A stretch of DNA of 45,933 nt, filler included, from Catajapyx aquilonaris (Eukaryota), in assembly GCA_000934665.2 (NCBI GenBank). It is 2 parts of 2 records of this genome, joined end to end, with 100 filler letters (N's around TTAATTAATTAA, not from the genome) between each part and the next. Parts side by side here need not be neighbours in the genome. Positions count along the whole stretch, not along the records: positions 1 to 22,934 come from JYFJ02005797.1; 1 more part is not named here. The stretch is one strand, 5' to 3'. Positions within the stretch are counted from its first letter, which is position 1; each line of letters begins with the position of its first letter. Positions 7,365-42,000 of this stretch are shown here, one piece after another. A program made the translations under genes and the position numbers. The notes beneath the pieces are model-generated. The model did not search any database and was not told the origin of the DNA. It saw only the letters and a program-made list of their open reading frames with translations.

Positions 7365-10300
7365 CATTGCTGACGCTAGTGTACACAAAGTCAGGAGCAT
7401 GAGCCAAAGGGTCCTCATTCCTCTCCTTTCGCAGTCGGGCAATCTCCTGGCAGGCTTTCTCAAACTCATCATTTAGTCCCTCCTGCAACATTGCCAGTTA
7501 CATGAACATCTCTTCAGTGTATTACTTTTTTCATCAACTTGACATATCTTACCTGCACCATGATGTGTGCCAGGTCCTTCATTGTGCAGGCCAGATGGCG
7601 AATGATCCTGTCCTCAGGATCTTTTGATGGATTATATTCCAGGGCATTGCTGCATATTAGATCAATGTCCTTCAGAAAATCACGTGGACACAGATATTGG
7701 TGTTGGTCCACCTTGCTCATCATTGTCTCTAAATCCATTGGCTGGCTGATTATATCCAAGTAATCAGGAACATCCTCCACATTGACTGGTCTCGTAAAGC
7801 AATAGAATCTAGGAGGAAAGTAAGTTTTAAATTGTGCTTCAATCTGGCTATAACACTGAACTCACTTGCGATTGCATGACAGCTTGTTAAGGGTGTCACG
7901 GAGAAACATCCTCAGCTGCCTTAATGTCACCTCTTCAATTTGATGCAATGCTTCTAGATCATCTTGGCTCAGTGGTTGGGATAGCTCAGCTGGTGCAAGT
8001 GGAAGTTTTTCTAGAACTACCCTACCTGTGGAACAAGCACTGAATTACATCGGTATGTAAAATCATGGGAGCCAAAATGTACCTGACGATTTGGATGAAG
8101 GTGGAAGAACAGACTTGCGCAAAAATAATGGTTCAAAATACTCATGGCGGTCAAGCTCTGATGGGTCTTGCATTGTGAACACCTCTTCTCGAAACAGTGA
8201 GAACTCATTACGGATCTACAAGAAAATGTGTGAAGTAGCAGAAATGCAAGAACTGATATACAACTTCATCTTACCTCCTCAGGAAGGCTTTTATACGGGA
8301 CATTTGCAGTGGCAAGAAACAATATTGGAGCTGATGGGTCCTGCTCATTCATGAGTGACAAAAATGTTGCCCGTATTACGTCTGATGTCACTTTCCACCA
8401 CTGATCCAAGTGGGAGAGGTAGAGGACACATGGAGCAGAATGAAGAGATTCCTTCAGCACCTATATGAGTTACACATAAATATAAATAAATTAAAACATG
8501 TATATAAATATAACATTTTTTTAAAATGCTTAGAACTCATAAAATTTCACACTGCAGAGCTCTGAAATTGGAACAGTACCTGAGCACAGGCTTCTTCGGG
8601 CGATCTGGATGGATTTGAGAAGAGTGCGGGAAGATCAAGGCGATGGATTGGAAGGTGGTCAAGCTGATGCAATAGAGCAGGGGCAAGATGAGTACTGTGT
8701 CCCTGCATTCGGTTCCCAGTCAGAAGAAGTCGTGGACGATGTACTGTATTGCATGATAACCTGAAGACAGATGCAGTGGTGACAAAAGAAACTGGCTTGA
8801 CTATCATAACTCTTACCTTTGTCCAGGCTTGCAAAAGCCATGTGGAAACACCTCCTTCAAATGTGCCAACAGCGTGTCAAAAAAACTGTGCAGAAGGTGG
8901 TGCATATCATCTGATAATTTTCTGCCTGGGCTGGGGGATGCCCGATGACCTGATGGAACAATGTTTGCCATTGCCCGAAGAAAGTCGCCTCGAGTGACCT
9001 GTCAAGCCCGTAAATGGTCACTCTCATCCAAGAAAATAATCTTAATGACTTACTGTCATGGAAGATAGGTCCAAAAGCAACTTTTCTTTGGACTTGTAGA
9101 TCTGTGGAAAGCGGCGGCGTAATGCACTCAGACCAGCTTCAGTACAGAGAGACTTAAGGTCTGCCCCACAGTATCCTGCTGTCTTCTCAGAAAGTTCCTT
9201 AATAAGGTCCGGAGAAACCTTGGGTTCCCATGTATTGGTGTTTATTTGCAGGATCTCTTGACGTGCCTGCAACAATAATTAAATTTTAGTATTTTACTAT
9301 ATACTTAATTATAATTAATTTAATTGGGTGATAGGTGTACCCCTAGGGGTTTTCAGCCAGACCTTTATTTTAACGTTGGTACAACTTTGGGAATCCTATT
9401 ATTGAAGCGCCCGGGCCCACGGGCAGGATGACAGGAGGGGATGTGCAAGTGCAGTGCTTTGTCTGAAATGTGGTCGTTTTGTGAGCTCCCCCGGGTGGAT
9501 TAGTCTAAGGAAATTCCACCCGACACGAAGTCAGAGACGACTCATGAACTCTGCATGAGATGAAGGGGGTGTCCCCAGGTTGGGATCGAACCCGGGATCT
9601 TAACATCCGTGGGTGCATACGTTACCGCAGCACCACTCAGCCTCCCCAATTTTACTAAACTTAGTTGCATATGCGCAACAATTGGGCATCAACACTGCTT
9701 CAGACCAGATATTACCAGATGGGAGGTAAGGACTGGCTTCAGGATTCAAAAGGACTGACACACATGCAGCAGTGACTTCCACAAAAAATATCACAGGTGT
9801 AGGATGTAGGCACAGCTTCATGCAACATATTATGGCAGCCACCTATTTCTGGCAGAGCTGGAATACTTTCCCACCCCCTGGCACACACAACATATAGCCT
9901 GGAAAAGTTGCCTAGTTTTTGCACATAGCTAACGTATCCCATCAAAAAAAAATTAATGTTAAAAACCTCAGCAGTGGTCACATTAGACGGCCAAAGGATG
10001 GCCCTGTGGCCTAGTGGTTATGCCACTGGCCAGCCAACAGGGATGCCTGCAGTGCAAATGATGTCCCCAATACAAGCTTAAAATATAGGGAAAAGAAATA
10101 TCAAGATACCAAATTGTAACAATCCATAAGATAACAAATGTCTGGTTGCACTCCAGTAACATGCAGCAACACAGTGCAAAATCTTGGAATGCATGCCCAG
10201 GTCTGGTACATTTATTGCCCAAGTTGTGACTTCTGTTAGTCCTCATTATATACTTGTTACTGGTTGAAATCCTAATGTTTGTCCTTGCTACATTTAGACA

Positions 10301-13300
10301 TGTACTGGGGAAAGGTAGGTAATGGCTGCTAGATGATCTCAAGTTCCAACTCAGATTGCATACAGAGAGTTTCTGAATTCAGCCGACAAACTTCTAGGGG
10401 TAATAGAGGGGATCAAGACAAACATTTCATATAGGAACCCCGTGTCCAGAAACAAGTCTGAGTTCCTTGTCTATTGACCCCCTCTAGATGGCGTTTCCGG
10501 ACACGGGTTCCTATATGAAATGTGTTTGTCTTGGTCCCCTCTATTACCCCTTGAAGTTTGTCGGCTGAATTCAGAAACTCCCTGTATATAATTTAATAAC
10601 AATTATGATCCAAGCCTCCATTGTCACCTACACATTATACATCGCTCTATGTTTACACATCCCTCACATGAAAGTGACTCACATGGATTATGGTGCTTAA
10701 AAATCTATGTCAAAAGCTACTAACTTACCTCCACTGTTGGTAGAGAAAAGTACAACTCTCTATCAAATCGACCTGGTCTTCGAAGTGCTGGATCAATTGC
10801 ATCAAGTCTGTTGGTTGCAGCAATTACAATCACTTCTCCTCTTGAATTCAAGCCATCCATTAATGCCAATAGGGTTGTCACAATGCTTGCATGGATCTGA
10901 TCTTGTCTGGATGAACGCACTGGTGCAAGGCCATCAATCTCATCAAAAAAAATGATGGATGGTCTCAGAGCATATGCCTATAGCAGAGAAAAAGTTCAGC
11001 ACATTGGTTGGAATTCCATTACAATTCTTTACAAACCTGATCAAATAGGTGCTTAAGTTGACGTTCTGACTCCCCAACCCACTTGCTCAGAACATCAGCA
11101 CCTTTCTGCATGAAAAAAGCTACTTTGCGCTCCTTGTTGCTGCATTCATTAGCCAATGCTCTGGCTACTAGGGTCTTTCCTGTACCTATTTCACAATTTA
11201 CAAGATTTTTAAAATGTTTGCAGCACCCAAAACTACATGGCAAAACTTGTAGCAATTTTACCTGGTGGTCCATACATAATGACTCCCTTTGGCGGTTCAC
11301 AATTCAGCTTCTGAAAAACTTCAGGGTACACCAGAGGGAATATTATCATCTCCTTCAGCTTCTGAATGTGATGCTTAAGACCTCCTATTTTTTCAAAGTT
11401 GACTTCTCGATCAATGGACACTGGCTCCACATCTGTCAATCGTAACCCAACTTTGGTGATCCGTTGGATTTCATCATGACTCATATTCATCGGAAGGCAC
11501 CTTTTAAAAAAAAAATGCGAATATATTATGTTTAGAATGAGAACATTATCTGAAACAAAGAATTTCACTAACTGATTCAAGGCCTTGGTGGCACTCTTGT
11601 TCGGCACATCATCATCTGAGGAATTGTCAAAGCCACCTGAGTTCCGGTTGTGACGTCGGCATTTCCCTCGAAGAGTGTTCCTCTTCGTTAAGGGGAGTTG
11701 GCATCCATCTTGATACAATGACCGAGTGCGTACACGTGTCTTTGCTGCAGCTGAGCATCAGGATAAAAACAATATAAGGATTATGAAGACATGATGTGCA
11801 TAGATAAAGATGCTTACCAATGGGGACCTGATATCTCTCAACAACTGGCTTCACTTTGCGAAGGCTGTACTTGCGCTCACATGACCGTGAACTCTCACTG
11901 GAGTCATCCATGTCCATTACTTCCTCGTGCTCTACATCCTCACTTCCAATACTGCTAGCAGCATCTATTAATATACCATTTTCATCAGTTATACTGGCGA
12001 AAGAATGTTACCATTCTGCATATTAACCTCACCTCACCTACACACAGATGTCCCCACCCAAAAAGAGACATGTTCTCCACCAAACACCTTTGCCTCTCAA
12101 TTTAACACATCTTTCACAAGCTGCATTTGCGCATGGATTTACCACATCTTCCCCCCTAAAACACAGCCAGGGCTGGTCCAATAAGTACTGACACCTGTGG
12201 AACAATCCCAGGGCAAAACCACCAAAGAAAAAAAATTGACCAAAGATTGGTGGCTTGGCTCTCAATTTTGCAGGGAAGGAAATGCACATAGGGTGGGTTG
12301 GCTTTCCCACAGATGTGAACGGCCTGATCAAAGATAGTAACCACTGTTGTGGAGAGGGACACAATGTCATAGGTAACCATGTTGGGCCATGGTCATCAAG
12401 CTCAATGATCAAGTCAATGGGGTGAGAGAAAAGGCATCAGAAGGTGTTGGGAAAGGACCCAAGATGAAACTGGACATTTGGGTGCATGAAAGATGTGCTC
12501 CTATTGTTGGTGAAATCCACTAAGCCCAAAAATCCAGTTTCAAGACTATTGAAGGCAAAGATTTGACTGTGCTCTTGTTTACATGCTAGTGAAGGCAGAA
12601 ACCTATCTTTCTGTCTCAATATGAATCTTTAATACTAAATGGACTTCACCAGGATACACAGCAGAAAAAAATGCCACTCAGTGGTGGAAATAACTCAAAA
12701 CTGCCAAAATTGGACTTGGTGGATTTTCACTTGTATGCAGATGATGTAATGTGACTCCCAAAAATGCCAGCATTTTCAAAACTCTCATATTCTGATATCT
12801 CCCGCTTTCCCTGTGTTTAATTTGCATTCATGCAACAGGCCCTCAAACAAATCCTTGGCATTCTCTCCAAAATATTAATTACAATTACAGGCTACCTAAA
12901 ACAAACTGACCACTACCATTTTTCTGAAGACTCGCACCACTGGCACTCCTTGTCCTCACTCCAAACTCCTCTTCCATGAGTGACTGCCGTGGACTCTTCA
13001 CTCGGTTATACAGTTCAACATAGCTTTCCTGTAAATTTCAAATATAATTATAACAGTGTAAGCCAAGTCTGCTTCAACCAAGAAACCATAACAATGTACA
13101 TTTTCTCCTCCGTTCATTCTTGTCCTCAAATAATAGGTGGGCTCATTCTGATCTTGAGACCTTGGACCATCATTTTCCTTTCGGTATCTTCCCATTTGTT
13201 CTTTTACCCTGTGTGTGGGATATTCTTCACCTAGTGTTGGATAGCCTTTTAGGTGTTGAGAATCTAGTATCCAGGAGGTGTTGAAGTTGTCATATATGAG

Positions 13301-14773: not shown

Positions 14774-14910
14774 ATGGATGTATGTGTAGAGTGTGTTTGT
14801 TCTTGTCATTATATTCCTTATCATCAAACTCATCATAGCCTATGTGTGTACCTGACCAGTCACCAAAGGTTTGTGATGTCTAGTCAAAAGAGATGGCAAG
14901 GTGTCGTGTA

Positions 14911-16415
14911 CAGTGCTGGACACAATAGCATATAACAAGTGTAAACAACGACTTTGGCGTTACCTGGCAACTGGTCGTGTTCGGACATCGTCATGTGGAG
15001 AGTGCTTAGCGTTCTTTCTGTCGTTGCCACTGTTTACAGGTAGCGATTGATGCTGGGACGAAGGGTGTGTGCATGCTTACCAATGCATGGCATCGGAATA
15101 AGCGGGCTGAGGGGGATATTATTTTGAGAAGGCGATTCGTTATTATCACACTATTGTCACTTTCCAGTATTAGTCAGGATGCATGGAGTTACTGAATGAT
15201 CGGGAAGGAGTCCGGTACATGCTCTTGTCTGCCAATTTAATGTAAGGTCCACATTGAATGTCATCCACTCCCAATCAAGTCCAGTGTAACGGATGAAAGG
15301 GGAGTAGTGGGTGGGTGAGAGTGTGTGAAAGAGGGTGGGTTGGTTGGGTAAGAGGCACATTTTCGTTCTGAATTACTGTCAGAGTCGTTTAGCCGTTTCA
15401 TAAGAAACGTTTCCAGGGCACTCCACGGAGTATGTGGCCGTCCTGGAGGAGTGTATGCTGCCATCAGTTCGGACCCTCTACCCCGAGGAGGACATGCCCA
15501 CAATACACCTCGTTCAGGACAACAGCTCCGTCCACACCTCACGAGAGACAACCGCCTGGCTGGACAAGCACACAGAAATCGACCGCATACCCTGGCCTGC
15601 GAAGTCACCGGACCTCAACTGCATTGAAAACATCTGGGGCCTGATGGTGCGGCAGTGGAGGCCGGGACAGGAGAGGTCCAGGGAGGCTTTGCGACGACAT
15701 GTCCACCAGGTTTGGGAGTCTCTCAGGAGGCGCCCAGAAGTCTACCAGAACATCGTGGCAAGTGTGCCGCGGCGACTGGATGCGGTCATCAGCGGCGGGG
15801 GTCATCCGACCCGCTACTGAAGATGACCGAGATGACGCACCTCTCTTCACACTATTTTCGGGTTGGACCCACCAGGGGCTTGAACAGAGTCGCCTCCACG
15901 TGGTGTGCCCTGGAAACGTTTCTTATGAAACGGCTAAACGACTCTGACAGTAATTCAGAACGAAAATGTGCCTCTTACCCAACCAACCCACCCTCTTTCA
16001 CACACTCTCACCCACCCACTACTCCCCTTTCATCCGTTACACTGGACTTGATTGGGAGTGGATGACATTCAATGTGGACCTTACATTAAATTGGCAGACA
16101 AGGGCATGTACCGGACTCCTTCCCGATCATTCAGTAACTCCATGCATCCTGACTAATACTGGAAAGTGACAATAGTGTGATAATAACGAATCACCTTCTC
16201 AAAATAATATCCCCCTCAGCGCGCTTATTCCGATGCCATGCATTGGTAAGCATGCACACACCCTTCGTCCCAGCATCAATCGCTACCTGTAAACAGTGGC
16301 AACGACAGAAAGAACGCTAAGCACTCTCCACATGACGATGTCCGAACACGACCAGTTGCCAGGTAACGCCAAAGTCGTTGTTTACACTTGTTATATGCTA
16401 TTGTGTCCAGCACTG
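14911..16415 (+). mobile_element. Internally deleted Tc1-like element with ~517-bp near-identical TIRs and TA TSD
   Basis: TA|cagtgctggacacaatagc...gctattgtgtccagcactg|TA. Arms ~14911-15427 and ~15899-16415 differ at only a few positions. The centre is a transposase fragment. Confidence 0.95.
15431..15820 (+). pseudogene. C-terminal fragment of a Tc1-family transposase (second D to E spacing = 35)
   Basis: HLVQDNSSVHTS...WPAKSPDLNCIENIWG...SVPRRLDAVISGGGHPTRY*. The DNA-binding domain and the first catalytic Asp are absent. Confidence 0.93.
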
Positions 16416-17932
16416 TACAGAAGGAGGCCGTGCTGGAGGCCCGAGCACATGGCTACGGTCAGGAGCAACACGGGGACGATGACGACGGAAGGTAGGGCCT
16501 GGCAAGGTGCTCCGTTGGGACGGGGCGTCCTCCTTCCACCTCCCCAACCAGGTCTATTACCACCACTCGGAATCTCCGGGGCTCCACCGCTGTTGCAGTT
16601 GTCTCCATCACAAAAGCACAGATTTGCTGGATTCATCAGCGTAGGAGGACTGGCAGGAATCAGCTGGCAATTCCTCAACATGTCGTCCACCTCTGACGCT
16701 GGCGCATACGCGCAAGTGAAGACAGAGTAACCCGAGTTGTCTGGGGAGAAAGAATAAACCATTATGAACATATCCGTTTTTACGTATGGGGAAATAAATC
16801 GGGGCACTTATTGCCCATAAAATCGCGGCGAGTTCGCCCTCATTGTGGTGCACTGGCAGAATAACACACCAAATCATTCGTACATAAGGCGTATTCGGCA
16901 ATTCAGGAATCTGACTTCCTGGGCTGTTTGGATGTTCGGCAAATCAGGTGCCACGCCCCCCTGAAGTAAGTGCGCATGCGCCCTACCTGACTTCCCAAGC
17001 TCAGGAACTTAGTGTACTCCTGACCTGACTTACTTGCTGAGAAACAATTAACAAACAAATTATTGTTATGGATGCAGCAGTGTTGCCAATGCAAAATGCC
17101 CAAAAACCCCGCGAGAGGACCTGAAAATACCCGATTTTACCCGCATTTTCATTTTACCCGCACCATTACCCGCAAGCGTCCGAAATACGGCACCGAAATA
17201 CCCGAACATTGGCATATCACTGGGATGCAGCACAGGCGGGTAGGGGGGTCTCTCAGTTCGGCCGTTCGGCAATAATCTTCTGAGGGGCAGGGCTAACAAC
17301 TCAGATATCACGTGACGCATCTCAGAATAATCTGAATTGCCGAATACGCCTATAATGTACGGAAAATGAGCGAACGATCTGACGACTTCACCATGGAAAT
17401 ACCATCACAGGACAATATTGGAGTAAACAGTGTCAACAAAAGGCAACAATGGAAGAAACTATGACGTCAGATCGTTCTCTCGTTTTCCGTATGCATTAGT
17501 TCGCCAAACAAAATTATATAGTCTTTTATTGCAGGCACTACTTTACCTGGGCCGGATTGGGACACGCAGTACCAATTACAATCCGTATAGTCACATTGGG
17601 GAAGGATGGCTGCTTCCTTCTTTGTCAACTCCATGCAATCCACTCCGGATCCACTCTTTTCCCATGTGCGCCCTTACAAGCCGGACCAACAGCGTCTCCA
17701 TTTCCCGCACTGCATATACGAAAGTAGCACTCACGACCGGTGGCTGCAGACAATAGGGATCGTTGTTGAGTGTTATCACATAAGCACGGAACCAGTGTGC
17801 ATAATAATAATAATATGGCTCACCCGGCGTGGCCATCAGTATGGCGACGAGGACGAGGACGATGAAGAGGCTGCTGCCGCCTCCACCAACCCAGCAAGCA
17901 GCAGCTGGCCCGCCGCTGGTGCTGGAAGCCAT
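16416..17932 (-). pseudogene. Ly6/uPAR three-finger (quiver/sleepless-like) GPI-anchored protein gene, frameshifted
   Basis: Exon 1 17932-17824 encodes a signal-like peptide (MASSTSGG..LFIVLVLVAILMATP). Exon 2 17743-17547 encodes ATGRECYFRIC...CDYTDCNWYC. Exon 3 16740-16416 encodes FTC...LCFCDGDNCNS plus a hydrophobic tail. Phase-1 GT-AG introns. An 11-bp insertion in exon 2 breaks the frame and the last codon is hit by the Tc1 element. Confidence 0.75.
16887..17351. mobile_element. PIF/Harbinger-like MITE in intron 2 of the Ly6-like gene
   Basis: Perfect 20-bp TIRs aggcgtattcggcaattcag / ctgaattgccgaatacgcct with 3-bp TSD ATA. The paralogous intron near 21600 lacks it. Confidence 0.85.
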
Positions 17933-18299
17933 CCTGGCCACTGATGAGCCCCGCTCTTTTGGAGTAGCTAGATTAAACAACCGGTTTGTCCGCAAAACTG
18001 AATCGAACTGATGAGCAGTGTGCCATGCCATAATAATCAACATCAACAAATAATAAATGTTGCATGGTTATACCATGTCTCCATAGCACCTCCAGCATAG
18101 TAGGCTAATGCAATGCACGAGTATTGTTGATTAAACTTATTAATGACGTTCCAAAGATTATAGTTACGTCTTTCACTAACTCCCTGTTCCCAAAACAAAA
18201 ATATTGATAGAGTTATAAACACCATAAAGAAGGAGCACAGAAAAAGACGCATTTTACACCTGGTCACCAGGGTGATGTTACAACAAATAAAAGTCAACA

Positions 18300-18880
18300 A
18301 TGTGCTTGTTTTTGATGTGCCACCCAGAGTATGTTTGCATGGCAATAAAAATAAGGAGAGCGACGTCAAGCGACGTGTTAAGAAATGTCAAAGGAAAGGA
18401 CAATTTGCTCGTGTCAGCCGCGATAGAAATCAAATTCACCAAGTTGAGGAGACACCGACTTCTTAGGTGCAGTTGCAGACTCTGCACATGATTGCACGGA
18501 TTGGCACGTGGCACTTCGAGTCCACAAGTCACTTCTTGTCCGTTTCAAGATTGACACTGATGGGGCCGACGAAGCCATCACGGTTCTATACCAGAGAGTT
18601 GCTACAGGGAGCATTTCAAAAATCTTCCGCTTCTTGCTATATACGTGGAAACATCTTTGCGGACCTGACCGTCGAGGAACACTTCCAATCCCGGATGTAC
18701 AGACTTTTCTCCTAGGCATTCCAGGAGTACGTGGTATGCCACTTAGACGATGTCCTGGTTTGGGGGACGTCACACAGGATGATCACAAAGTTGCGACAGG
18801 TGCTTAACCGTTTTCGTGAAGAATAAGGGTTGCCGTTAAATAAGGACGAGTGTCTTTTCAACGCCAATAGCTGGCGGCTG
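18300..18880 (+). mobile_element. Degenerate Ty3/Gypsy retrotransposon fragment (gag knuckle, protease, RT remnants)
   Basis: Across frameshifts: KKCQRKGQFARV (decayed zinc knuckle), VRFKIDTDGAD (DTGA protease motif), LLGIPGV..CHLDDVLVWG (RT YxDD-like motif) and KLRQVLNRFREE*GLPLNKDECLF. Confidence 0.8.
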
Positions 18881-19188
18881 ATTCTAATAACAAAATCTGG
18901 AAAAAAATCGTCCTTGTTCACAGAGAGACTGTATACTTCGGGAATACTTTTCGTGCACGAGTACAATGATAATGAGTGATAGTATATATAGTGTTTCCAA
19001 GCCCTTCCCGGCGAAATATTCAAGGACAGCAGTTGGTATGTAATCAGATGAGATTGATTAACATTACTCGTGATAATCCCATGCGTAAGTTTAAATTATA
19101 TAAAAATATATTTTTAAGAACCTTTTTAAGAACACGCTTTATATTTCCAAGTGCATTAAAAAGTAGAAAATAATTTCTTCCTCAATCT

Positions 19189-20619
19189 TCAGCTTTCTCT
19201 TCCAGTCTTGCACTTTCCGGAGTCCAGTAACAGGTCAAAGGCACCTGAGAAGAATATTGTACGGTATATTAAATCATAGGCCTATGCTAGTTTCATAACA
19301 TACACATACTACACATGATGGTTTGAAATGGAGTTGCAAAAATATACACCTGTGCCCATTCTCGGCAGCTGTCCCAGCATGATAATGTTTTCAGATACTC
19401 CTCTCATTGTATCCTGCTCAGCATGGGCAGCTGTATCCATCAGGTCGTCAACTTTTTCTTCAAAGGAACACCTCATAAGAGGCCCATAAGTGTCCTGGCG
19501 ATTGCTGACCATCAAGTGACCCTTTGCAGTCATCACGTCACACAGCAAGGTCAAGTGACGATAGTTCACGTAAAGGCCATAGAAGTTAAGAACCACGTTA
19601 ATCTCCTTCTCAATTGACTTACGCACAGCCTCTATACCCAAAACCTGTATAGTGAGATAGGCATAATTAGTGGACTGTAACTATACAATTGCAGTACAAA
19701 TCACTTACGGTGAAAATTTCACAAATGTCATTGGAGTACGTCCTAACGGGATCGACGTCCCTATCGCTCAACACCTTCCTAAGGCTGGTCCCGTCTGTCT
19801 CCAGCAGCCATTCGGGTATGGCTTCGTACTCTCCTGCGTCAGTCACAATGATGCGTTGCTTTGAGTCCGTCTGGCCCAAGTGCATATATACCTTGCTGAT
19901 ACCCTCAATGCCCTGCACAAGATTTATCATTAGCCGACTATTCACTCTGATAAAATAAGTTTATGCTTAAAAATGTGAGAGCTGACCTGTAATGTCATGT
20001 CTGAGAGCAGGCTGGCTTCAATTCTGCTCAGGATCATGTACTCCTTCCTCTCATCCTGCTCTTCTTCATCCTGGAACTTACTCTCATCAGAGTTCATGAT
20101 TCGAATACGCAGAACAAGTTTTTCTGCATTGCAGTCATTGAAGATGCAGTTCAAATAGTCGCCAAACCCAGCGCTAATCTTCCCCGCAATCTGCTCCGTG
20201 GTTAATTTCTTGTCTGAAAATCGCGATAATGGATTGCCACTCCTAATATCCACCAATAACAAGGTACAAGAAGTTTTGAAAGAGCTCGTGCTATTGTGTA
20301 CACTAATTATTGCAACCTTCAACAATGCGTGACTTTTCACAATTTTGTCGATTTATCACTGATGATTGTAGTGATCAGCAAAGAGAGCTATCATTGTCTC
20401 TCTGGAATAAAATTGACAGGTGTCGGTAAATACTGTAGCAAGAGGACACTACTAACCTGTCATGCTCTTTCTGTCCAGTTCTATGCGAAGTAGCCATGGA
20501 GAGATGCAAGTTGGATCAAAGTGATGGTTCTCATAGTAGACATTCACAAACTCCTGGTCCTCTGGCACCACTGTGTTTTGTGGGTCAGGGTCATAGTGTA
20601 TAGCAGTCTTTGCAGCAAC
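19189..20619 (-). other. RPB1: Partial, divergent duplicate of RNA polymerase II largest subunit (jaw to region H only; 5 exons, 314 open codons, no CTD); pseudogene or neogene
   Basis: Exons 20619-20457, 20213-19987, 19912-19709, 19644-19350 and 19244-19189 total 945 nt and splice in frame. Peptides: [111 protein letters not shown]. Confidence 0.92.
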
Positions 20620-21209
20620 CTAAATAAGAAACGCAAAACTCATAATGTTCATAATCAAACGATTTTCGTAAAAGCTGATCTGCTCCTGATATGACCACGT
20701 CAAGGGCAGCATGGCCACATTAAGTACCGGTATTATATTTTTATTTGTCTCAATTGCGAACAGTAATTTGTTTTAACAATCTCAATTTTGTCTTGTGCTC
20801 TTCTCTTGAATCATTTCAAATGTTGTTTTTTTTGAAAGAAATTGTAATGGCAATTTTGCAAACAGCTTAATTTTTAATTACATATTCATTGAATTTAATG
20901 ACATATTCATTGACCTGATTTTCCCCAACATATCGTATTCCTTCAATAACTTTCATCGCATGAAAAGAATAATACAAGCGCTGTCCCATGACGCTGAAAA
21001 TAATGATTTATTTGGATAATTATGCAAGTTTTAGCTTTTAACCAACACCTACAGGTGTATATAGCATGTTTGTTATAATAGGATTTATGATGTGGTATAC
21101 ATCATCAAGTTTTAGCGAGAGGTCACTTTCAAAACATTTTGTGGTTGATGGTTCCACTAGCTGTAGACTAGAGGAACCGGGCATTTCCTCAGACGCAGCA
21201 CTGCACTAG

Positions 21210-21472
21210 CTAGTACAGAAGGAGGCCGTGCTGGAGGCCCAAGCAGGTCAGGATGAGCACGGGGACGACGAAGGTGCTCCGTTGGGGGGAAGAGGTGGCC
21301 CGACCAGCGCCAGGACCATCAGTGGGACGTTCCGGGGCGTAACCGCTGTTGCAAGATTCTTCATCGCAAGCGCATAAATTTCGGGCCATGTCTGGGGCAG
21401 GAAGCACAGCGCAATACTTGAATGCGTTGTACACATTCCGTGGCGCATTCATGCAAGTGAACGCAGCCCCAC
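21210..21472 (-). pseudogene. Terminal exon of a second Ly6/quiver-like paralog; upstream exons not found
   Basis: Acceptor tttctccctatag, then GAAFTCMNAP..YCAVLPAP..NLCACDEESCNSG..VVPVLILTCLGLQHGLLLY*. The GLQHGLLLY end is identical to the 16416 copy. Intron similarity extends to ~21760, and a minus-strand AATAAA lies near 21010. Confidence 0.7.
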
Positions 21473-22605
21473 CTATAGGGAGAAAGAAACCATTATAAAC
21501 AGAGTCGTTTTTACTCACGGGCAAACTGGGAGCACTTGCCAAAAGCGGCAAATTTTGGGGGGTCTCGTGGTATATAGTGGAGCATGCCCTCACACCCTGT
21601 ACCACAGTGTGGAAAACGAAACAACGACGGTCCCACGTCATCATTTTGTTCTCGTGCAACAATATAGGAGTAAGCAATATGTTCTTTTTGTTGACAATGT
21701 TTACTAGTGTTGTCGTGTGACGATGGCGTCAGATCGCCGTTTCGTTTTCCGCAGTTTAGTCCCCCTTGGGCCAAAGAAGCAACACCATAAAATCGAACAC
21801 CAACAGGCAGAACAATGCCTTCGCATTGCCAACTGAATGTTTGAAAAGGATCTCCATGTGCGGCGACCCCAATGTTTCGAACAACTGTTCGCCCCAAGGT
21901 TCGCCCTCATTGGCAAACCCAAAGAGTTTTCTGCTGTAATAGAGAGACAGACCACTCGGGGGGAAAATAATGCGAGGCAGGCAGCAATATGACCCAAGTA
22001 AATAAAGAAGGCGGACGCCTGATTGTTATCCCAGTTGTCATTATTGGTTGTTGTCCCAGTTGCAGCTGTCGGAACAACAATATAAAATGACCCAAGATGC
22101 CTCAGCCTGCGGCTAATGGAAAAGGATAGGGAGCGGTCTCTCTACTACTAGCATCAAGAGCTCTTGCTAGCATGGATGCATGGCGTACTTTGCTCGGGTT
22201 ATGAAATACTTTTCCATTAGGAGTAACTCATTGATTTGGTAGTTATACCTTTGCAATAATTATGGCTATTCAATGTTGGCATACCTGTAACATGGAGCAT
22301 ATTGCTGAAGTCCAAACAACACACTGCGGATGTCAGGTTGTAAGAAAATACACAATACACCTTAAAAATCCAGCAAAAGTATGTAATGAAAAATTGAAGG
22401 TTGTGCAGTAAATGTAGAATAGAATTGAAAGACCGGCATCTCTCTCAGTCATTCCCCAACCCCAAAATGGCCAATCTGGCCAGGGTGACTGTGCCAGCTG
22501 GCAGTTGTGGGGTCACTGGAGAACTCAAGGCCCACCACCACGTCAAGGTGGAGATACCATCGATTAGTCATTTGGATTTTTAAAAAAATGAGTGTCAATG
22601 AAGTG

Positions 22606-22934
22606 CAGGGGCGTACCTAGGGGGTGGCGAAATTGGCCCCCGCCAAGGGCGCAACCCGATGGGGGGCGCCGAAGGCGCCCCCTTCCGAAGAGGCGCCCCT
22701 TCCGAAGAGGCGCCCCCTTCCGAAGAGGCGCCCCCTTCCGAAGAGGCGCCCCCTTCCGAAGAGGCGCCCCCTTCCGAAGAGGCGCCCCCTTCCGAAGAGG
22801 CGCCCCCTTCCGAAGAGGCGCCCCCTTCCGAAGAGGCCCCCCTTCCGAAGAGGCGCCCCCTTCCGAAGATTCGGTACCAGCCCCCGGACACTCCCCATAT
22901 TATCAGCTCTTATCGCCTACCGGGGCGTATTTCG
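22606..22934. mobile_element. hAT-like element left end carrying an 18-bp GC-rich minisatellite; truncated by the gap
   Basis: Starts caggggcgtacc, like the caggggcgtaac end of the 3918 element, and shares gggcgccgaaggcgcc with it. Confidence 0.55.
22678..22869. repeat. Minisatellite (cccttccgaagaggcgcc)n, ~10-11 copies
   Basis: Direct head-to-tail 18-bp units without spacers. Confidence 0.95.
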
Positions 22935-23034
22935 NNNNNNNNNNNNNNNNNNNNNNNNNNNNNNNNNNNNNNNNNNNNTTAATTAATTAANNNNNNNNNN
23001 NNNNNNNNNNNNNNNNNNNNNNNNNNNNNNNNNN
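22935..23034. other. Artificial 100-bp assembly gap with a six-frame stop linker
   Basis: 44 N + TTAATTAATTAA + 44 N. Confidence 0.95.
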
Positions 23035-24185
23035 GCCACGCACACATTTCTGTTGTCACTAGCTAGGACATGTTAAATGTTACACAGATGCACGGACATG
23101 CACTCTGAATGAACCCAACCTTGAAGCATTTCAGGAGCAAATGACCAGCCAGAGGTATTGAATGAAAGATAGAGTTGTGGAGATGTTTTTCTGAATGAAC
23201 AATAGTCCCATTCAGGTGCAGATAAGTTTGTTGACTAATGGGTTAATTTTAGCCTAGTTCAGTGCTCTCCATATATTTATTTCGTGCATTAATCATCCTG
23301 CTGGGGCATGTGTGTTACACGTCAGGCAAGCCTTTACATTTACTATTTGAAGGTTAAATTGAGCATTCTCAATGGTGATGTCACATGCCGAAAGATCTGG
23401 TCTCCCTGACCATGTCCACTTAGGCTTGTAAGTTTCTGCACTAGTCTTCAAAGGTTTAAAATGTAACATGATAAAATGTCAGCTACTTTGACATGTAAAC
23501 AAGCACAAAAAAATTTTGGTGAATATTTCAACTCAAAAAAACCTTGAGGTTCTCCCCATCAAAATTTTAATGTAGGTATAATATTTGTTTCATACTTGTG
23601 TCAAAGTGCATGAGAGCAGAGATGGGAAATATGATGCTCCCCCCCCCCCCCCTTCCCATGCCAAAGGCCAAGACCATGACNACCATGACCTTGAATAAAT
23701 AATTAAAATTTTTAATCACCTGCTCAGTTGCCAGATTCACTGTTAGCTACTCCCCCTATTTTGTCTTCTGGAGTAAGCTTGCAGGTGCCAATTGTCATAA
23801 TGTCAGTGCAAGTGTAATCACTAACAGTAAAACCAATTCAGGACATTGCCAAAATTCAGTATGATATTTTATTGAAAATTAAGTTTAATTGTGTTCACAA
23901 AGTTACCTGAGCATAAGAAAGTTTCGTAGATACTCTGGCAGGTAACTTGTATTACACCTTCGTTCCTTGCTATGATTAGCCCTGTCGTGAAAGAAATCAT
24001 TTGTGACTGTGCAGTTGTAATTTCCTGACAGTAATTAAGTAATTACACTATTTACACCTTGATCAATGAAGAGAGAGTGAATAATTATAAATAGGTTTCC
24101 AGACACAAATATCTTACACCCTGTAATTTTGATTTTGAATAACTGGGGATGGTGAATCTGATTGCTTTTCCTTTTGGTGTGACAG

Positions 24186-27100
24186 GCGAGGCAAAGAATC
24201 TACCTCCGAGAGGCGGCCATGTCTCAGTGGGCCTCCGAGACACATACTGCGCCTTGTCCCTGGACAGGGAAGAGATATTCCGGACCAGCACAGTGGAACG
24301 CAGCCTCAGCCCTTTCTTTGGGGAGGAATTCCGCTTTGAGGTTCCCCGGACCTTCCGCTTCCTCTCCCTATACGTGTACGACAGTGACAGGCCCATGAAG
24401 CAGGACAAGGTCATTGGGAAGGTAGCAGTGAAGCGAGAAGACCTACATCAATATGATGGGAAGGACCATTGGTTCCCACTCATGCCTGTTGATGCTGACA
24501 GCGAAGTGCAGGTCAGTTCAAGTACCGCAGCTGTCATGTTCATCGTGGCAGGTGCAAGGCCATAGCACAATTTATTATTTTCATAAATACGGAGTGAAAG
24601 ATTACCTCGTCAGAATATAATTGTGAATCATGCGTTTCTAAAATTATTTAACTTATTCAAATTGAGTTTGGGAATTTCCAGGGTAAAGCCCATATAGAGC
24701 TGAAGATGGAGACTTACTTAAAGAGCAGCAGCGATGGCAGTCCTCACAGCAGGGTCATTGTCAGGTGAGGTTGTCAAGTCCACATATCATTCTGAGCAGG
24801 TAACTTATGCGCTATTGTTTGCAGGGTGATTGACTGCAGTGATCTGACTGTTGTGAATGGTGCTTGTGACCCTTTCGCCACAGTGTCACTCTGGTATTCT
24901 ACAACCAAACAGGAATGCAAGAGGACGAAAGTGAGGAAAAAGACTACTTCCCCGAGATTCGACGAGGTCTTCACATTTGAGGTAAACTGTTGCTGTTTCT
25001 GATTCAATGAACCGATTAACTGACCAGTGCTTTTTGTGTTGCCAGCTTCCCAGCAAAGGCCAGAACCACGACCGAGAGAATCTCTACCGCATACAAGGGT
25101 CCAAGTTAGGGCTGCTGGAAGTTAGGGTTGCACTTTGGCATGACTCACCTGGGATGTTTGGGAATGTCTTTCTTGGCGAAGTTAGGATTCCTTTCAAAGG
25201 GATGGATCTTAGCAGAGGACACAATGCATGGTATTATTGCTTTGAAGTTTGTTTTGTTAACCTTACTGTACAATTAGTCATCAATTTTACTTGATAGAAA
25301 TGTAACCAAATGGTATGAAGATTGCTCTATATAAATTATAACTTTAATTGATGCATTGTGAGGATTCAGCCTAAAATGTCATAATTTATTACGTTATCCG
25401 CATTTGTTTTTCTATGTTCTAGGTACTTTCTCCAGCCTAGAGAAGGTGTTAAATTAACCCGCCCAGACTTAGGTTCCTTGCGCTTAAAGATTCATTACAC
25501 TTCGGACCATGTGTTTTGTAGTCAAGTGTATGATGCCTTGCGAAAATTGATGCTTCATAGTATATCTGTGGAGGTAAGTAATGCAGCCGTACTTGAATGA
25601 TGGAATGAGTGTACCCACTACCAAGCGTGTTTCCTTTCAGCCCATAACCTCAAGTGCAGCTTACATATTGTGGGAGATTGTATCCAACAAATGCGATGCA
25701 GTGCCACCTCTTGCCAAGATATTCTTATACCACAAGCAGATTGTGCCACTTATCAAGGCATTGGCTAAATGGGAAATCTCAAAAGTCACGTAAGTCAACA
25801 AAGCGCAAGTGTATTTCTTGGGGATGGACAGCTAACATTCCTGTTTTACTTGCAGGGATACAAACACGATCTTCCGGGGAAATACTCTTGCGTCCAAGAT
25901 GATGGATGAGTTTATGAAGCTGGTGGGGCTGCACTATTTACGCAGTACCCTGAAGCCTGTCCTTGAGCAGATCATTCGTGAGAAGAAGCCATGTGAGGTG
26001 GACCCCTCCAGGCTTAAGGACAGGGCCAGCTTAGAAGCCAACTCAGCCAACCTGGCAGACTACCTGGAGAGAACCCTCTCTGCCATTACAAACTCAGCCC
26101 TCAACTGCCCACGACTCATGTGCCAAACGTTCCATGCCCTCAAGGAGCTTGCTTCCATTTACTTCCCTGATGCCAGGGAAGTTAGGTACTCGGTCATATC
26201 GGGGTTCATCTTCCTCAGGTTTTTTGCCCCTGCCATACTTGGTCCAAAGCTGTTCGACATCACAACAGAGCAAATTGTGAGTTGGTTTTGGTATTTTTTT
26301 TTTAAATGTCGTTATAGCTGGGAACGGGTGCATGTTCCATTTTTTTGGCAAACGACTTGTAACTAACCCTAACCTAAACTGCAATGTTTGGAATGCTTCA
26401 AGCACTGCAGTGATTGCACAACCCTTGCTGTTACTGTTCATGAATGTGTAGACAAAATGATTGTCGTTTTAAAGATATGTAGAATTCTCTTAATGGGTTT
26501 ACCTGCCACAGTTTCATTCATTTTTAGTCAAATGATGTTTTTACGTTCATAGGATTCTCAAACTCACCGAACTTTGACTTTAATATCCAAAACTATCCAA
26601 AGTCTGGGGAATTTGGTGAGCTCTCGAATGCCACATCACATATGTAAAGAAGAGTATATGGGAAGCGTGCATGCTGATTTCTTCACACCAGAGAGGATGC
26701 AAGCTGTCAGAGATGTGAGTCACTTTTGGTTTAGCTGCATGCAATACATGTTTATACCCTTTTTTTTGTACTCTTGCAGTTCTTGGAAATCATTTCATCT
26801 ACCTCTACGCCTGGTCATGAAATTCATGACACACCTGTTCTTCTGAAGGAGGGGTAAGTTTAATTATGTCTGGATGCATATTGTAAGATGTGATGTTGAC
26901 AATTTCTCTTACGCATATCTTTGGGATTTCAAGCAGTAAGTGTAAACATTGGGCAAAGTTTCAGTGAAATGTCAATTAATGTACGTAATTTTTTCCAAGG
27001 ATGATGATCAAACGAGCACAAGGAAGGAAAAGATTTGGGATCAAGAATTTCAAGAGGCGCTACTTCCGCCTCACCACTCAAGATCTAAGTTACAGCAAGA

Positions 27101-33355: not shown

Positions 33356-36209
33356 TCAGAGTTTCCTCAAGTCCAACACAAACACCTGCAAATTAGAAAT
33401 TTTAATTAGAGTGCGGAAAATTTGATTACTGAACACCTTTCCCACGTATCTGAATCAACTGGACTACCACACTGACAACTAGTACACATTTTCCATTAGT
33501 TTTTACAGCATAATTGCAAAAGTGGGAACTAATACTACCACATGTAGGATTTCTGATTGTTTCTCTTCTTGCAAAATGCAAACTGCCCGAAGCTAACTAT
33601 TTATTTCCTATGTAACTTTATTTTCTCTAGCAAGCTCCTTTGCCAAGATATTTTGCCATGGTCCAGTCATTCAAGCACGTTGGCAACATTATCCCTTTCT
33701 TCAGGTACTTACACTTCCATCTGAAGCACTTGCACCAACTTTGTCTCCACGGGAGTTCCAACACACTTCAAAAATACCACCAGTTCCTTTGTAGCTATGC
33801 ACCAGTTGTCCACTCTAGAAATTTCAACATGGTTAGTCACAATGCCTTTCCATTTAGTTTGAATTTTCTACCTGTGTGGACCAAATGTGAACGCATTTGT
33901 CGAAACTTCCAGACGCAAGGAATTTGCCATCGGGAGAAAAAGCCACGCTGTAAACAGGCTCTGTGTGCTTGGTAAGAGTGTGAATGCAAGCACCTCGTTC
34001 GACATCCCATAAGCGGACAGTTGAATCAAATGATGCACTGGAATATTGACAGAAAATGTAAAATATCTTGAGGGAAGTATGGCTCAGCAATACTGATAGG
34101 GGAACATGTTTTACCTGGCTAGAATCAAATTCATGTTCGAATTCTGAGTCCCTGGACCAGTTGGACTCCACTTGATGGTGTATATTTCCTTGCTGTGAGC
34201 CTGCAGGTCATGTACGCAGGTGTCTTGTTTCATGGACCAGATCTTCAGGGTCATGTCATCTGAACAGGAAGCAAGCAGATTCCCTTGAGGGTCCCACTTG
34301 ATGGCATTCACTTCATTCTGAAACATTTCAAGAGGAGTTTCAATTGATGTAAGTTGCAAAAATTCGCAGGTTAATTACCGTGTGCCCTTGGAAGGATTTC
34401 ATAGGCTTCTCAGTCCCAAGCTTGCATACATGGATGCACTGATCAGTACTGCATGAAGCAAAACTGGTGTTAGTCTGCCAGTCTACATCCAGTGCCGGAG
34501 CCGAGTGGAAGGCAAACTGCTGGGTGCATTGGCCTGAAGCAGCATCCCAAATGATGGTGGTCTTATCCACGCCTGCACTCAGTATGTAATTTCCTCTCTT
34601 GTTCCACTTGAGAGCAAAAATGGGACCTTTGTGCTGGCCTAATGTACTGGCCAGGCGGCCCTCGGTTGTCCAAATCCGGGCATATCCGTCATACGAACCA
34701 GTTGCTAGCAACGACCCATCGCACTGAAACAATAATGATATCAAAACTGCAACACTTACTCCCAAGTCATAAAACATACATTCCAGTCCAGTGATGTGAC
34801 ATCTTTGTTGCTTGGCACTTCGGTCCCACCCTTTTGGATACAATGTCGAAGGACCAGCTGGTTTGGAGGGGCGGAGTTGTCATTGATATTCCATATCCTA
34901 GCAGTACTATCGCCAGATCCAGAGGCAAGGAGATCAGTGGTTGGGTTCCAAGCACAGATGAATACTTCAGATTCATGGCCTCTGAGGACAGTGGCTTTGC
35001 TTGGGGGTATCTCAATGCTTCCGTCCACCTCCATGTTCTCGTTTGTGTTCGATGATGCTAAGATTATATTCGAATGAGGATTTGCCCTGAATTGAACCCA
35101 ACCAAGTGACATACCTTCTTCGCCATTTGTATCCTGTGGTTCTGTCTTGACAATCTGCGGCTTCTGCTGGTTTTGCTGCTGTCGACTTGCAACCACGTCT
35201 GGCATCACAGCATCAATCAAGGATAGGCTTTCGATCATGCGTTCTGATCCATCCTAAAAAATGTTTAAAAGCTCATTTAGTTTGCTCGTCCTGGAACTGC
35301 AGCTTCTTCTAAAACACTACCTCTCCAATACTGATTTCAGCTTCAGTGTACTGTAGTCCCTTCTGGATGATGCTGAGAAGAGCTGCCGGTGGCACCAATG
35401 CTCCATTTATATTAGACTGGGAGATATGGGATTCTATACCGAAAGTATAGGCAGAGTGCTGAAAACCTGAAGAAAAATACAAACGGTCAACAAAAGAGTT
35501 TATCTATTACAATTTTTGTAATTCAGGGTGGTGCCCTGTCCAAGTCCACAACACAAGAAAGGCCTAGCACAAAAAAATATTCTGACATTGCAAAAAATTT
35601 CATAATTGACAGAACATTCTGGTGTTGTGAAATTGCAAGAAAAAGCATGAAATTGTGGTGTGTGACAACTAATTTCCCCACTCAGTTTACATGTGACTGA
35701 CATTTGCAACGTTTTCCTGGGCCTCACACGGAATCCCTTCCTGCTCGCAATAGATTCAATTGAATATTAAAATGATTCCACTATAAATGCGTAAGGGACT
35801 GCATAATAATACGGTTCCGAGTAATGCCAAATTTGACTTTCAAATCATGTTGTGGACCAATCCACTTACGTAAGACTGTCAAGCGAGATTCAAGCAAACA
35901 TTGTCAACAGCTTCTACTGTATTTTCTGTCATGCAACACAGCCTTTGTAATTGCAATACAAATGGTTAAATATTGCTTCGGACTTGCACCCGTGATTACA
36001 CTGTACATCGGATTTTATCTCATATCCATAATGCAACTCCCATATTGGAGTTAACTTAGCATCATCATGTGCATCAAGTTGTCAACTGGTCTGCATCTTT
36101 CATGAACACACAAGGCTACACTTGGCTGTCACCCGCAACCGATCCACAAACCTGACTCCTGCAGGTACCGGTACACCAGGAAGTTGACCTCGTCGCTTGA
36201 GAAGCTCAT
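33356..36209 (-). CDS. ebi: F-box-like/WD40 corepressor TBL1X/TBL1XR1 orthologue (Ebi), complete, 9 coding exons
   Basis: ATG at 36209: [32 protein letters not shown] (LisH), [27 protein letters not shown], further WD40 repeats ([37 protein letters not shown]), ending VFVLDLRKL* (TGA 33358-33356). Confidence 0.97.
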
Positions 36210-39081: not shown

Positions 39082-42000
39082 ATGGACGGTGAAACTCCAG
39101 TAGCTGTGGCAACGAACGGGGGACCTGCGCCGACAAACGGGGGACCTGCGCCGACGAACGGGGGACCTGCGCCGACGAATGGGGGACCTGTGCCGACGAA
39201 TGGAGGCCCTGTGCCGCCACCTCCTGTAGTAATTGGTGGTGGAGGTGGAGGAGACTCACTCCCTGGACGGGGCAGAGGAGGAGGTGGAGAAGGGGGCTTT
39301 CGAGGAGGCCCTGGTAGAGGAGGCCCACCTGGAATGAGGTGAGAGTGTGATATTGAAGCTTTGATAATTGCCAGAAGAACTGTCCTAAGCTTAATTTGTG
39401 TTTATTGTGCAGGGGTCGTGGTGGGCCCCCCATGCGTGGCGGTATGGGCATGGGCATGGGCATGGGCATGCGAGGAGGGCCTGGAGGACGAGGAGGACCC
39501 ATGCGTGGAGGGATGGGGTCCAGAGGACGGGGAGGAGGACCTCCGATGAGGTTAGTATATTTCCCTCCCCTGTACTTGTGCCTGTGTAGGCAATGCTGAA
39601 TGTTTGGTGGCAGAGAGATGCCCTGGTCTCAAATACTCTCATAACTTACCTATTTGGATATGACACAATTATTAAAAGGGCTGTCATGTGATGGTCATTT
39701 TAGAATGTTCCAGACATCACAGAGCATTGACTTGTCAGGATATTAACCACGTCCTTGTTTTGATTGTCAGCATTTTGACCTCTTGCCAGTTCATCCAAGT
39801 GCTACTGATAACACTGATAGGTATGCTTACTAATCTCTCTTTACAGGCAAGATGATGGTTATAATTCGTTTCCTCGAGGCGGGATGTCTCGTGGAGGTGG
39901 ACCCATGGGAAGGGGTAACATGAGGGGTGGGCCCGGAATGCGTGGAGGCATGCGCGGAGGCATGCGCGGAGGCATGCGTGGAGGGCCACCCATGAGAGGT
40001 AAGATGTGTGAAGGAATTGGATGGAAGTGTTGGAATTACTGCTCTCATTAGTTTATAATTAATACCAAAGGAAATGTCTCCCTACCACATACAAATGTTA
40101 TGCCACAACTGATGTCAAAATTGTGCGAAGAGACGCAAGTGATATTAAATGTTGTGTTTTATTCGGAGGGAAAATCAGCACCAATTGGCTGCTGCAGACA
40201 TTTCCCTCCTGATATAATGGTATGGCATTATGGGCGCCAATTTTTTTGTTTATTGATCATGAAAATGTGTGAGAATAATGTAAGAGTAAATGTTCATGCA
40301 CAGTTTTGTAGTGCAGTATTTATCAAGGTTCTCTAAGTAGTCTTCCATACCTGAAAGTGTCTTCTGATCTCTTGGAGATTCAAGTTATAGGAGTGGTACT
40401 GCATTAGTTGCTGTTTTTCTGACTGCACTACATTCTGCTTCTGGAAGGTATGCGAGGAGGCATGGATCGTGGCCGAGGTGGAATGGACCGCGGAAGGGGT
40501 GGCATGGACCGCGGAAGAGGTGGGATGGATCGTGGCAGGGGAGGAATGGATCGTGGCAGGGGAGGAATGGATCGCGGCAGAGGAGGAATGGATCGCGGCA
40601 GAGGAGGAATGGATAGAGGCAGAGGAGGAATGGACCGAGGCAGAGGGGGAATGGATAGAGGCAGAGGGGGAATGGACCGTGGAAGGGGTGGGATGGATCG
40701 TGGCAGGGGTGGGATGGACCGAGGAAGGGGTGGGATGGACCGAGGAAGGGGTGGGATGGATAGGGGCAGGGGAGGAATGGACCGTGGTGGCATGATGAAG
40801 AGGAGCTATGGCGACATGCATGGTGGTATGCCACCAATGAAGCGAAGCCGGTTTGATGATCCCCAGCAGGGTGGAGGCCCTGGGTTTGGGGGCATGCCAA
40901 GGTACCCCAATGCAGGTGGGGCTGGAAGTGATGGTGTTGGGGGCTATTCCTCCAGGCCCAACTTCGGAGGGCAAAACTATTACGACAAACCAAGTTAGTA
41001 TTGTTAACCATATGGAGATAGTTCCTAGGCCCTTTGTCAAATGTGAGCATTTATTTTCAGATGAGGACAATTACGGCGGAGGCTATGCCAATGCAGGGTA
41101 CAACAGCGGGGCTTCTGGTTACCCACCTGCTGTCAATTCTTATGGTAAGCACGAACAATCATTTACTTTCAAACTGGCACTGAGCTGGTCATTGGGGGTG
41201 CAAAATATTCCAATCATGTTCCATAATATCTCCATTGTAATTCCCATTCACAATAAGCCAGTACTTAATATCATGGAATACTTTGCAATTTCTAGATCAA
41301 TGAAATTTATTACTTTTCAATATTCCAAGGCATAATATACAGCTCTCATGCATTCTAGAATGAGCTGGGAGTTTTCCACATTTTTTACTGGGTGTTATCC
41401 ATGGTGATGCATTCCATGGGGTGGGAGGCTGGAGATATTTTAACAGGGTTTTGGCTACCACAGTTTGTTATGATTGCATTGTTATATGGTTATTTTTGTT
41501 TCAGGTTCAAACTACGGAGGTCCAGCTGATTGCAGAGACAATGGCGACTTTACCAAGGATAATGGTAAGTGGGGCAGAGCAGGGGAATTTTGGGAGTGAA
41601 AGAGGTCCTGAAGGATATTCAACTGTGGCTTGAGGGCCACATGCGATCTATTGTGAATCTCATTCCCTAAAGCTGAAGTGTGCAAAGACATTTTTTCCAA
41701 GATTCATATTTGGAATGTGCACAAGCACGAGAAGCACATGATATGTGCAATCTGGCAGTTTCAAGTTTTGCATTTTGACCCTTCCTTAGAAGGAAAGTGT
41801 TTTCATCTTTGAGAAAGATTGTAACATGGCACTTTTGTCGCATGACATGTTCATTCAAGAAGTAGCACTTTATATCCTGGGCAAGAGCCCTGAAATAAAA
41901 TATGAAAACCACTGTGAGAAATTTCTGCAGGAATTCTGTAAAATTGCATCCAAGGGTGACAGTTGTATGGCAGCACTGGGGAAATATCTGGGACCATGCA

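Follow-up and report, generated by a model that had tools for sequence, protein, structure and literature searches.

A second, expressed piece of RPB1 in an animal genome raises the question of whether it is a working part of the transcription machinery or a decaying duplicate of one of its genes. RPB1 is the largest subunit of RNA polymerase II, and its gene is normally strictly single-copy and very slowly evolving. The window analysed here, a stretch of 45,933 nucleotides from Catajapyx aquilonaris, carries on its minus strand an RPB1-like copy that a sequence-only reading had described as a frame-preserved but catalytically dead mini-paralog that may be translated. We thus focus on three aspects of this copy: what part of RPB1 it retains, how it is transcribed and where it came from, and whether its open frame speaks to function. 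Our preferred answer is that it is probably a gene fragment, a transcribed and unprocessed pseudogene of young to middle age, and not a working polymerase module.

What the copy retains of RPB1

The gene model proposed earlier, including the stop before its first exon and its final residues, is reproduced in full on the minus strand. Exon 1 (20457..20619) holds 54 codons plus 1 nt, in which the match to Rpb1 domain 7 (jaw) begins; exon 2 (19987..20213) covers the remainder of that match, with the acidic loop; exon 3 (19709..19912), of 68 codons, belongs to domain 5, as does exon 4 (19350..19644), which includes region H; and exon 5 (19189..19244) ends with a TGA stop at 19191-19189. Joined, the five exons give 945 nt, that is, 314 open codons and the TGA, with GRES* as the last residues. 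An AG precedes every exon and a GT follows exons 1-4, so that all 8 splice dinucleotides of the four GT-AG introns are intact. We found no disabling mutation, whether stop, frameshift or lost splice site, in the 314 codons and 8 splice dinucleotides; the only features that tend that way are the want of a start codon and an earlier TGA in a second version of the copy, both described below. The triplet before exon 1 is TAG, an in-frame stop that includes the acceptor AG.

Exon by exon, Pfam assigns exons 1 and 2 to RNA_pol_Rpb1_7 (E 6.7e-19 and 4.8e-18) and exon 4 to RNA_pol_Rpb1_5 (E 2.2e-13); exon 3 also matches Rpb1_5 (E 5.2e-06), with 26.5 bits, which is under the 28.5-bit cut-off when this exon is taken alone. 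Arthropod RPB1 residues ~1160-1480 align along the whole length of the five exons with 75-78% identity. When three full-length arthropod RPB1 proteins were compared with the window by tblastn, only residues about 1160-1485 gave matches, which agrees with the earlier claim that there are neither upstream RPB1 exons nor a linker or CTD. No N-terminal, active-site or CTD exon was found by this search in the 45.9-kb window, including the 25 kb upstream of exon 1, which hold no RPB1 match at all, and self-comparison found no second RPB1 piece or duplicate of the copy within the window. Of the Rpb1 domain set 1-7, only Rpb1_7 and the end of Rpb1_5 are matched by Pfam, and the catalytic region is absent from the window; the description of the locus as a CTD-less RPB1 fragment without the active site is thus correct. 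One weak tblastn match at 21552-21623 (E 8.6) was considered as a further RPB1 exon and rejected as noise, as its translation is unlike RPB1.

As for the heptad repeats of the CTD (PF05001), the Pfam scan of the window, which covered 165 stop-to-stop ORFs of at least 75 aa, gave no match at E<0.001, and the frame of the copy itself stops at 19189. Weak matches to CTD-like low-complexity sequence do occur at 40436-40777 (E 0.005), upstream on the copy's strand. The surrounding region, 40336-41070, has long open frames in several phases on both strands and consists of G-skewed low-complexity sequence with no Pfam family.

Transcription and origin of the copy

A search of public runs for the sequence of the copy listed one run, referred to here as X1, which contains 0.35 of the words and whose kind is not on record; no run recorded as RNA was among the results. 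Its contigs (Logan; 85,611 records, 31.8 million letters) were compared with window positions 16200-22934. The joints at 19241/19347 (cut +3), 19642/19707 (cut +2) and 20213/20457 coincide exactly with introns 4, 3 and 1, and the joint ends read CT..AC, as they should for GT..AG introns of the minus strand. At 19915, a 17-letter overhang is present in two contigs; its reverse complement, read by eye, equals the end of exon 2, and this indicates that intron 2 is removed as well. The bin 20250-20474, which is nearly all intron 1, has a depth of 3.87, of which ~3.1 comes from 18 exon bases at depth 38.9. Intron-skipping contigs and almost no cover of intron 1 are what lead us to read X1 as RNA. 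A check for spliced RNA, suggested together with the original gene model, is thus positive, with ~99%-identical contigs that skip introns 1, 3 and 4 and cross intron 2. The copy yields RNA that is spliced at the sites it inherited, as seen in one run from one study in which the RNA kind is inferred.

Two contigs in particular bear on the origin of the copy. The first, X1 record 4 (599 nt), has two listed exon pieces, of 296 and 209 nt, each 2 letters off the window. It lacks 3 nt at 19375, differs at 19200, and extends into the copy's unique 3' flank, where the untranslated stretch 19162..19188 (minus strand) is covered by this 99%-identical spliced contig. Its joint side measures 80 letters and the 19200 difference lies 39 letters from the contig end. 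Record 4 therefore represents this locus, either as another allele or as a near-identical copy. The second, X1 record 3 (1988 nt), differs from the copy by 17/203 mismatches in exon 3 and 31/298 in exon 4 and by 15 gap letters, so that the two are ~89-92% identical; 12 of the 15 gap letters, at 19486-19495, correspond to the deletion in the AITRHG stretch described below. Past 19200 record 3 becomes unlike the window, and its first 30 loose letters translate, by our own reading, to GIEIPVNLGAG, which resembles the linkers of canonical RPB1 proteins such as GIEIPMNIGAG. We read record 3 as the mRNA of the parent gene. Word depth is 23.5-28.9 for the copy's contigs and 39.8 for the RPB1-like contig, although contig depth cannot rank genes.

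If record 3 is indeed the parent mRNA, it follows that the copy ends at a duplication breakpoint in the middle of an exon (19199..19201 on the minus strand, where the match to the RPB1-like contig ends) and that its last three codons and stop are foreign flank. The RPB1 homology of the copy ends at ~19200, in mid-exon on the 3' side, the introns are retained, and a separate RPB1-like mRNA contig is present in X1; together these are features of a partial duplicate. The earlier statement that the product ends in GRES* right after region H therefore holds for the position of the end, but this end is not a trimmed RPB1 terminus; it is read-through into unrelated flank past ~19200. The identity of 89-92% at the nucleotide level to the RPB1-like mRNA contig indicates that the copy is not very old.

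The same data bear on the possibility that assembly produced the copy, either as an artefact or as a fragment of the genuine RPB1 gene. In favour of this, there are two 44-N gaps 2.3 kb upstream (22935-23034). Against it, the deletion specific to the copy, its breakpoint and its unique 3' flank are all found in X1 contigs, and the RPB1-like sequence that we take for the parent mRNA forms a contig of its own; the copy also has other genes to either side. An artefact is hardly credible on this evidence, since X1 independently reproduces the junction of RPB1-derived sequence with the unique 3' flank, and the locus passes as genuine, as the sequence-only reading had assumed.

The gaps themselves adjoin a GC-rich tandem array at 22660-22910, with ~11-13 copies of an 18-nt unit (CCCCCTTCCGAAGAGGCG), which is the likely cause of these N-run assembly gaps. 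Beyond them, on the plus strand, lies a C2 + RasGAP gene (24143-26363; Pfam), followed by mariner and Tc5-type remnants (~31-32.7 kb; Pfam) and a WD40-repeat gene on the minus strand (33857-35253; Pfam). On the other side, Pfam identifies a minus-strand gene with AAA, AAA-lid and bromodomain (ATAD2-like) at 7517-11303. A small cysteine-rich gene shares the strand of the copy, and its last exon (21211-21855, minus strand) reaches its end at 21211, which puts it 0.6 kb upstream of exon 1. A paralogous last exon occupies 16412-16720, also on the minus strand, with the RPB1 copy between the two. These two exons share a C-x-C-D-x-x-x-C-N-S-G motif and a hydrophobic tail ending in GLQHGLLLY, and the gene appears to encode a GPI-anchored protein of the Ly6/uPAR type. 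Neither these exons nor a downstream ORF at 18715-19095 has a Pfam match up to E 1. With unrelated genes on both sides, the RPB1 copy thus sits in a spacer. It might also lie antisense in an intron of the RasGAP gene.

Several mobile elements are found nearby. A 1.5-kb element (14907-16419) lies directly against the second cysteine-rich exon. It contains a DDE_3 transposase remnant (15404-15817; Pfam), and its inverted ends, of 521 nt, are 99% complementary. Two smaller elements, at 16887-17351 and 17358-17491, have perfect 20-nt and 93% 27-nt inverted ends and are represented by several variant X1 contigs; they are probably expressed or multicopy MITE-like repeats. We considered capture of the RPB1 copy by a transposon and set it aside, as none of the nearby inverted-end elements, nor the 18-nt array, brackets the copy.

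Alternatively, a second RPB1 gene, longer than the copy and perhaps full-length, may once have existed and been broken up by a later rearrangement, with the copy as one of its remaining pieces. The position of the copy's end, at the very start of what would be the linker and CTD, fits such a history. However, the same-strand small gene 0.6 kb upstream of exon 1, the lack of any RPB1 match in the 25 kb upstream, and homology that stops in mid-exon, as a duplication breakpoint would have it, make a broken second gene improbable.

In the mechanism that we favour, a part of the RPB1 3' body (five exons and their introns, ~residues 1160-1480) would have been duplicated at the DNA level and the duplicate inserted in the spacer downstream of the small cysteine-rich gene. 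The 3' breakpoint would fall inside the exon just before the linker and CTD, so that the frame reads three codons of foreign DNA and then stops. The amino-acid sequence would now be drifting without RPB1-type constraint, and the open frame may be partly a matter of luck at modest divergence and partly the reason that the copy was noticed at all.

The open frame and the question of constraint

Function had been suspected from the open frame, on the argument that in so highly diverged a copy it is unexpected. This argument is not supported, as the copy is only ~10% away from the RPB1-like mRNA, and under neutrality it would be stop-free by chance in 3-26% of cases. When neutral substitution was simulated on the copy's own coding sequence (5000 trials per divergence), the probability of no stop was 0.26, 0.14, 0.059 and 0.029 at neutral divergences of 0.04, 0.06, 0.09 and 0.12, respectively. 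Indels leave some room for selection on the frame. By estimate rather than computation, neutral decay would keep all 2-3 indel events in frame only a few percent of the time, and this is the strongest point in favour of such selection. For the copy's branch, omega can be bracketed only roughly, at 0.27-1.3, from mismatch counts in exons 3 and 4. The calculation uses 107.7 synonymous and 390.3 non-synonymous sites, assumes an unchanged parent protein, and takes minimal non-synonymous counts of 16 (residues that no canonical sequence has) and 34 (departures from the consensus). As this range includes values below 1, some constraint is possible.

A more direct view of constraint comes from the comparison with canonical RPB1. 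Among 120 listed proteins, 96 cover the copy end to end; after P0003 (a nematode protein, 54%) was dropped and identical regions were collapsed, 68 distinct sequences remained. The copy departs from their consensus at 63 of 312 aligned positions, as compared with a median of 16 (range 10-51) for the canonical sequences. At 23 of the 182 invariant columns the copy has a residue that none of the 68 sequences shows, as compared with 18 of the 130 variable columns (Fisher p=0.87; odds ratio 0.90). The replacements appear blind to what RPB1 conserves. This equal rate at invariant and variable columns favours a loss of purifying selection, and it also counts against a folded subunit decoy, which would avoid changes at core positions.

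Relative to both the 68-sequence consensus and PDB 9mu7_A, exon 4 has lost five residues from an otherwise invariant stretch, HLMAITRHGINRQDT (the AITRHG region). Over the region H / switch 1 stretch HLMAITRHGINRQDTG, invariant in RPB1, this same loss leaves the copy five residues shorter, with one extra residue. There is a net 12-nt deletion at about 19486-19495, with a matching gap against the RPB1-like mRNA contig. By the same comparison, exon 4 has one extra residue in DTYGPLM and one in ENIIMLGQ. The AITRHG loss and the DTYGPLM insertion are thus confirmed as first described. The extra ENIIMLGQ codon (about 19373-19375) is present in the window but absent from both X1 RNA contigs, which makes it specific to the window's allele. 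As to a further loss of one residue claimed for the acidic jaw loop, a length difference is seen, but it cannot be polarised, as this stretch varies in length among the canonical sequences too.

Differences between the window and the X1 versions of the copy extend beyond this codon. Among the differences listed (5 of the 7 for X1 record 5), non-synonymous changes fall at codons 74 (Y/D), 82 (C/G), 115 (I/F), 143 (G/P), 244 (V/A) and 312 (R/stop), in each case window/X1, together with the one codon indel in ENIIMLGQ and synonymous changes at codons 81 and 239; the exon 2 codons concerned, again among those listed, are 74, 81, 82 and 115. In the X1 allele, codon 312 (19200-19198) is TGA, a stop earlier than the window's at 19191-19189. 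At codons 74, 115, 143 and 244 and at the codon indel, X1 and not the window has the consensus state; that is, the X1 version is canonical at four of the five listed non-synonymous differences within the RPB1-homologous part, and at the indel. The window's version would appear, from this comparison of sequences, to be the more decayed one, and the position of the stop seems not to be fixed. This asymmetry may stem from greater decay of one allele, from the presence of a second copy, or from conversion by the parent gene.

For the frame to be translated, a start codon is needed. The first in-frame ATG (20461..20463, minus strand) would give a product of 262 aa; this ATG does exist, as originally noted, but four out-of-frame ATGs precede it in exon 1, one of them in CCATGG context. 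With the in-frame TAG before exon 1 and these four earlier ATGs, the copy would appear to lack a start of its own in a usable context, and translation of the RPB1 frame is unlikely unless an upstream exon supplies the start. X1 contig cover is absent at 20700-21599 and 17550-18224; an upstream coding exon with an in-frame start is possible, with the 5' end of the transcript outside the contig cover.

Counterparts of the copy were sought in a collection of 5.8 billion proteins. None more than 82% identical to exon 4 was found among 120 of 1830 matches to longer proteins, nor among 120 of 243 matches of similar length, and ordinary insect and springtail RPB1s reach the same best identity of 82% to this exon among the matches listed. 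The collection may lack close relatives of this organism.

Taken on its merits, the proposal that the copy is translated, from an upstream exon or by leaky scanning, into a 262-314-residue non-catalytic jaw/cleft fragment, which could serve as a decoy for subunits or assembly factors or form the 3' part of a chimeric protein, can draw on several of these observations. The frame is open over 314 codons with every indel in frame, the RNA in X1 is spliced, the omega range reaches below 1, and long blocks such as MRGVSENII and an 11-residue block are the same as in canonical RPB1. Set against these, invariant columns receive novel residues as often as variable ones do (p=0.87), an invariant core stretch has lost five residues, and four out-of-frame ATGs lie ahead of the in-frame one. 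Furthermore, the stop and five other codons differ between ~99%-alike versions (among the differences listed), with the window mostly in the non-consensus state, and no counterpart appears among the matches listed from the 5.8-billion-protein collection. On balance we regard translation in any of these forms as unlikely. The more specific idea of a CTD-less RPB1 jaw/cleft module without an active site, made as protein from an upstream-exon start and titrating shared polymerase subunits or assembly chaperones, is decidedly improbable. Alternatively, the transcript might act as RNA, for instance as a regulator or sponge of the parent mRNA, with the open frame irrelevant. The transcript is spliced and ~90% identical to the RPB1-like mRNA contig, as such a role would have it, but nothing points to it specifically: no Rfam family is found in the window, and there is no conservation outside this genome among the matches listed. 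A function of this kind is highly improbable.

Meaning and comparison with known systems

The evidence thus points to the ordinary case, a partial duplicate that has yet to acquire a disabling mutation. As an instance, an expressed RPB1 fragment is nevertheless unusual, and it could in principle interfere with polymerase assembly. The copy would also provide a dated snapshot of how a pseudogene of an essential gene decays early on. For practical work, a 90%-identical expressed paralogous fragment calls for caution in annotation, RPB1-based phylogenetics and primer design in this lineage. In the accessible portions of the literature on RPB1 paralogs and on partial duplication, we found no published description of a partial expressed RPB1 copy, and the reports on paralogs there are not about animals.

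Three kinds of known system offer a comparison. First of all, with canonical RPB1 (POLR2A / RpII215) the copy shares alignment over its full length, also to the chains 9mu7_A and 5flm_A, and the Rpb1_7 and Rpb1_5 matches. Canonical RPB1, on the other hand, has domains 1-4 and 6, the active site, the bridge helix, the linker and the CTD, all of which are absent from the window's copy. Second, specialised full-length paralogs of RPB1 exist in plants, namely NRPD1 and NRPE1 of Pol IV and Pol V. An RPB1 paralog in a ciliate is likewise mentioned in one report (PMC5312943). What these full-length paralogs have in common with the copy is a duplication of the gene for the largest subunit of Pol II; unlike the copy, which is only a 314-codon fragment of the C-terminal body, they retain the catalytic body and show conservation between species. 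Finally, partial (structurally incomplete) gene duplicates are said to have been catalogued in C. elegans by Katju and Lynch, and it is such partial duplicates and unprocessed pseudogenes that the copy resembles most in kind, with its introns kept, truncation in mid-exon, a frame that runs into the flank, transcription in a foreign context and apparently relaxed constraint. It differs from unprocessed pseudogenes in that it is so far free of disabling mutations and its splice sites are intact.
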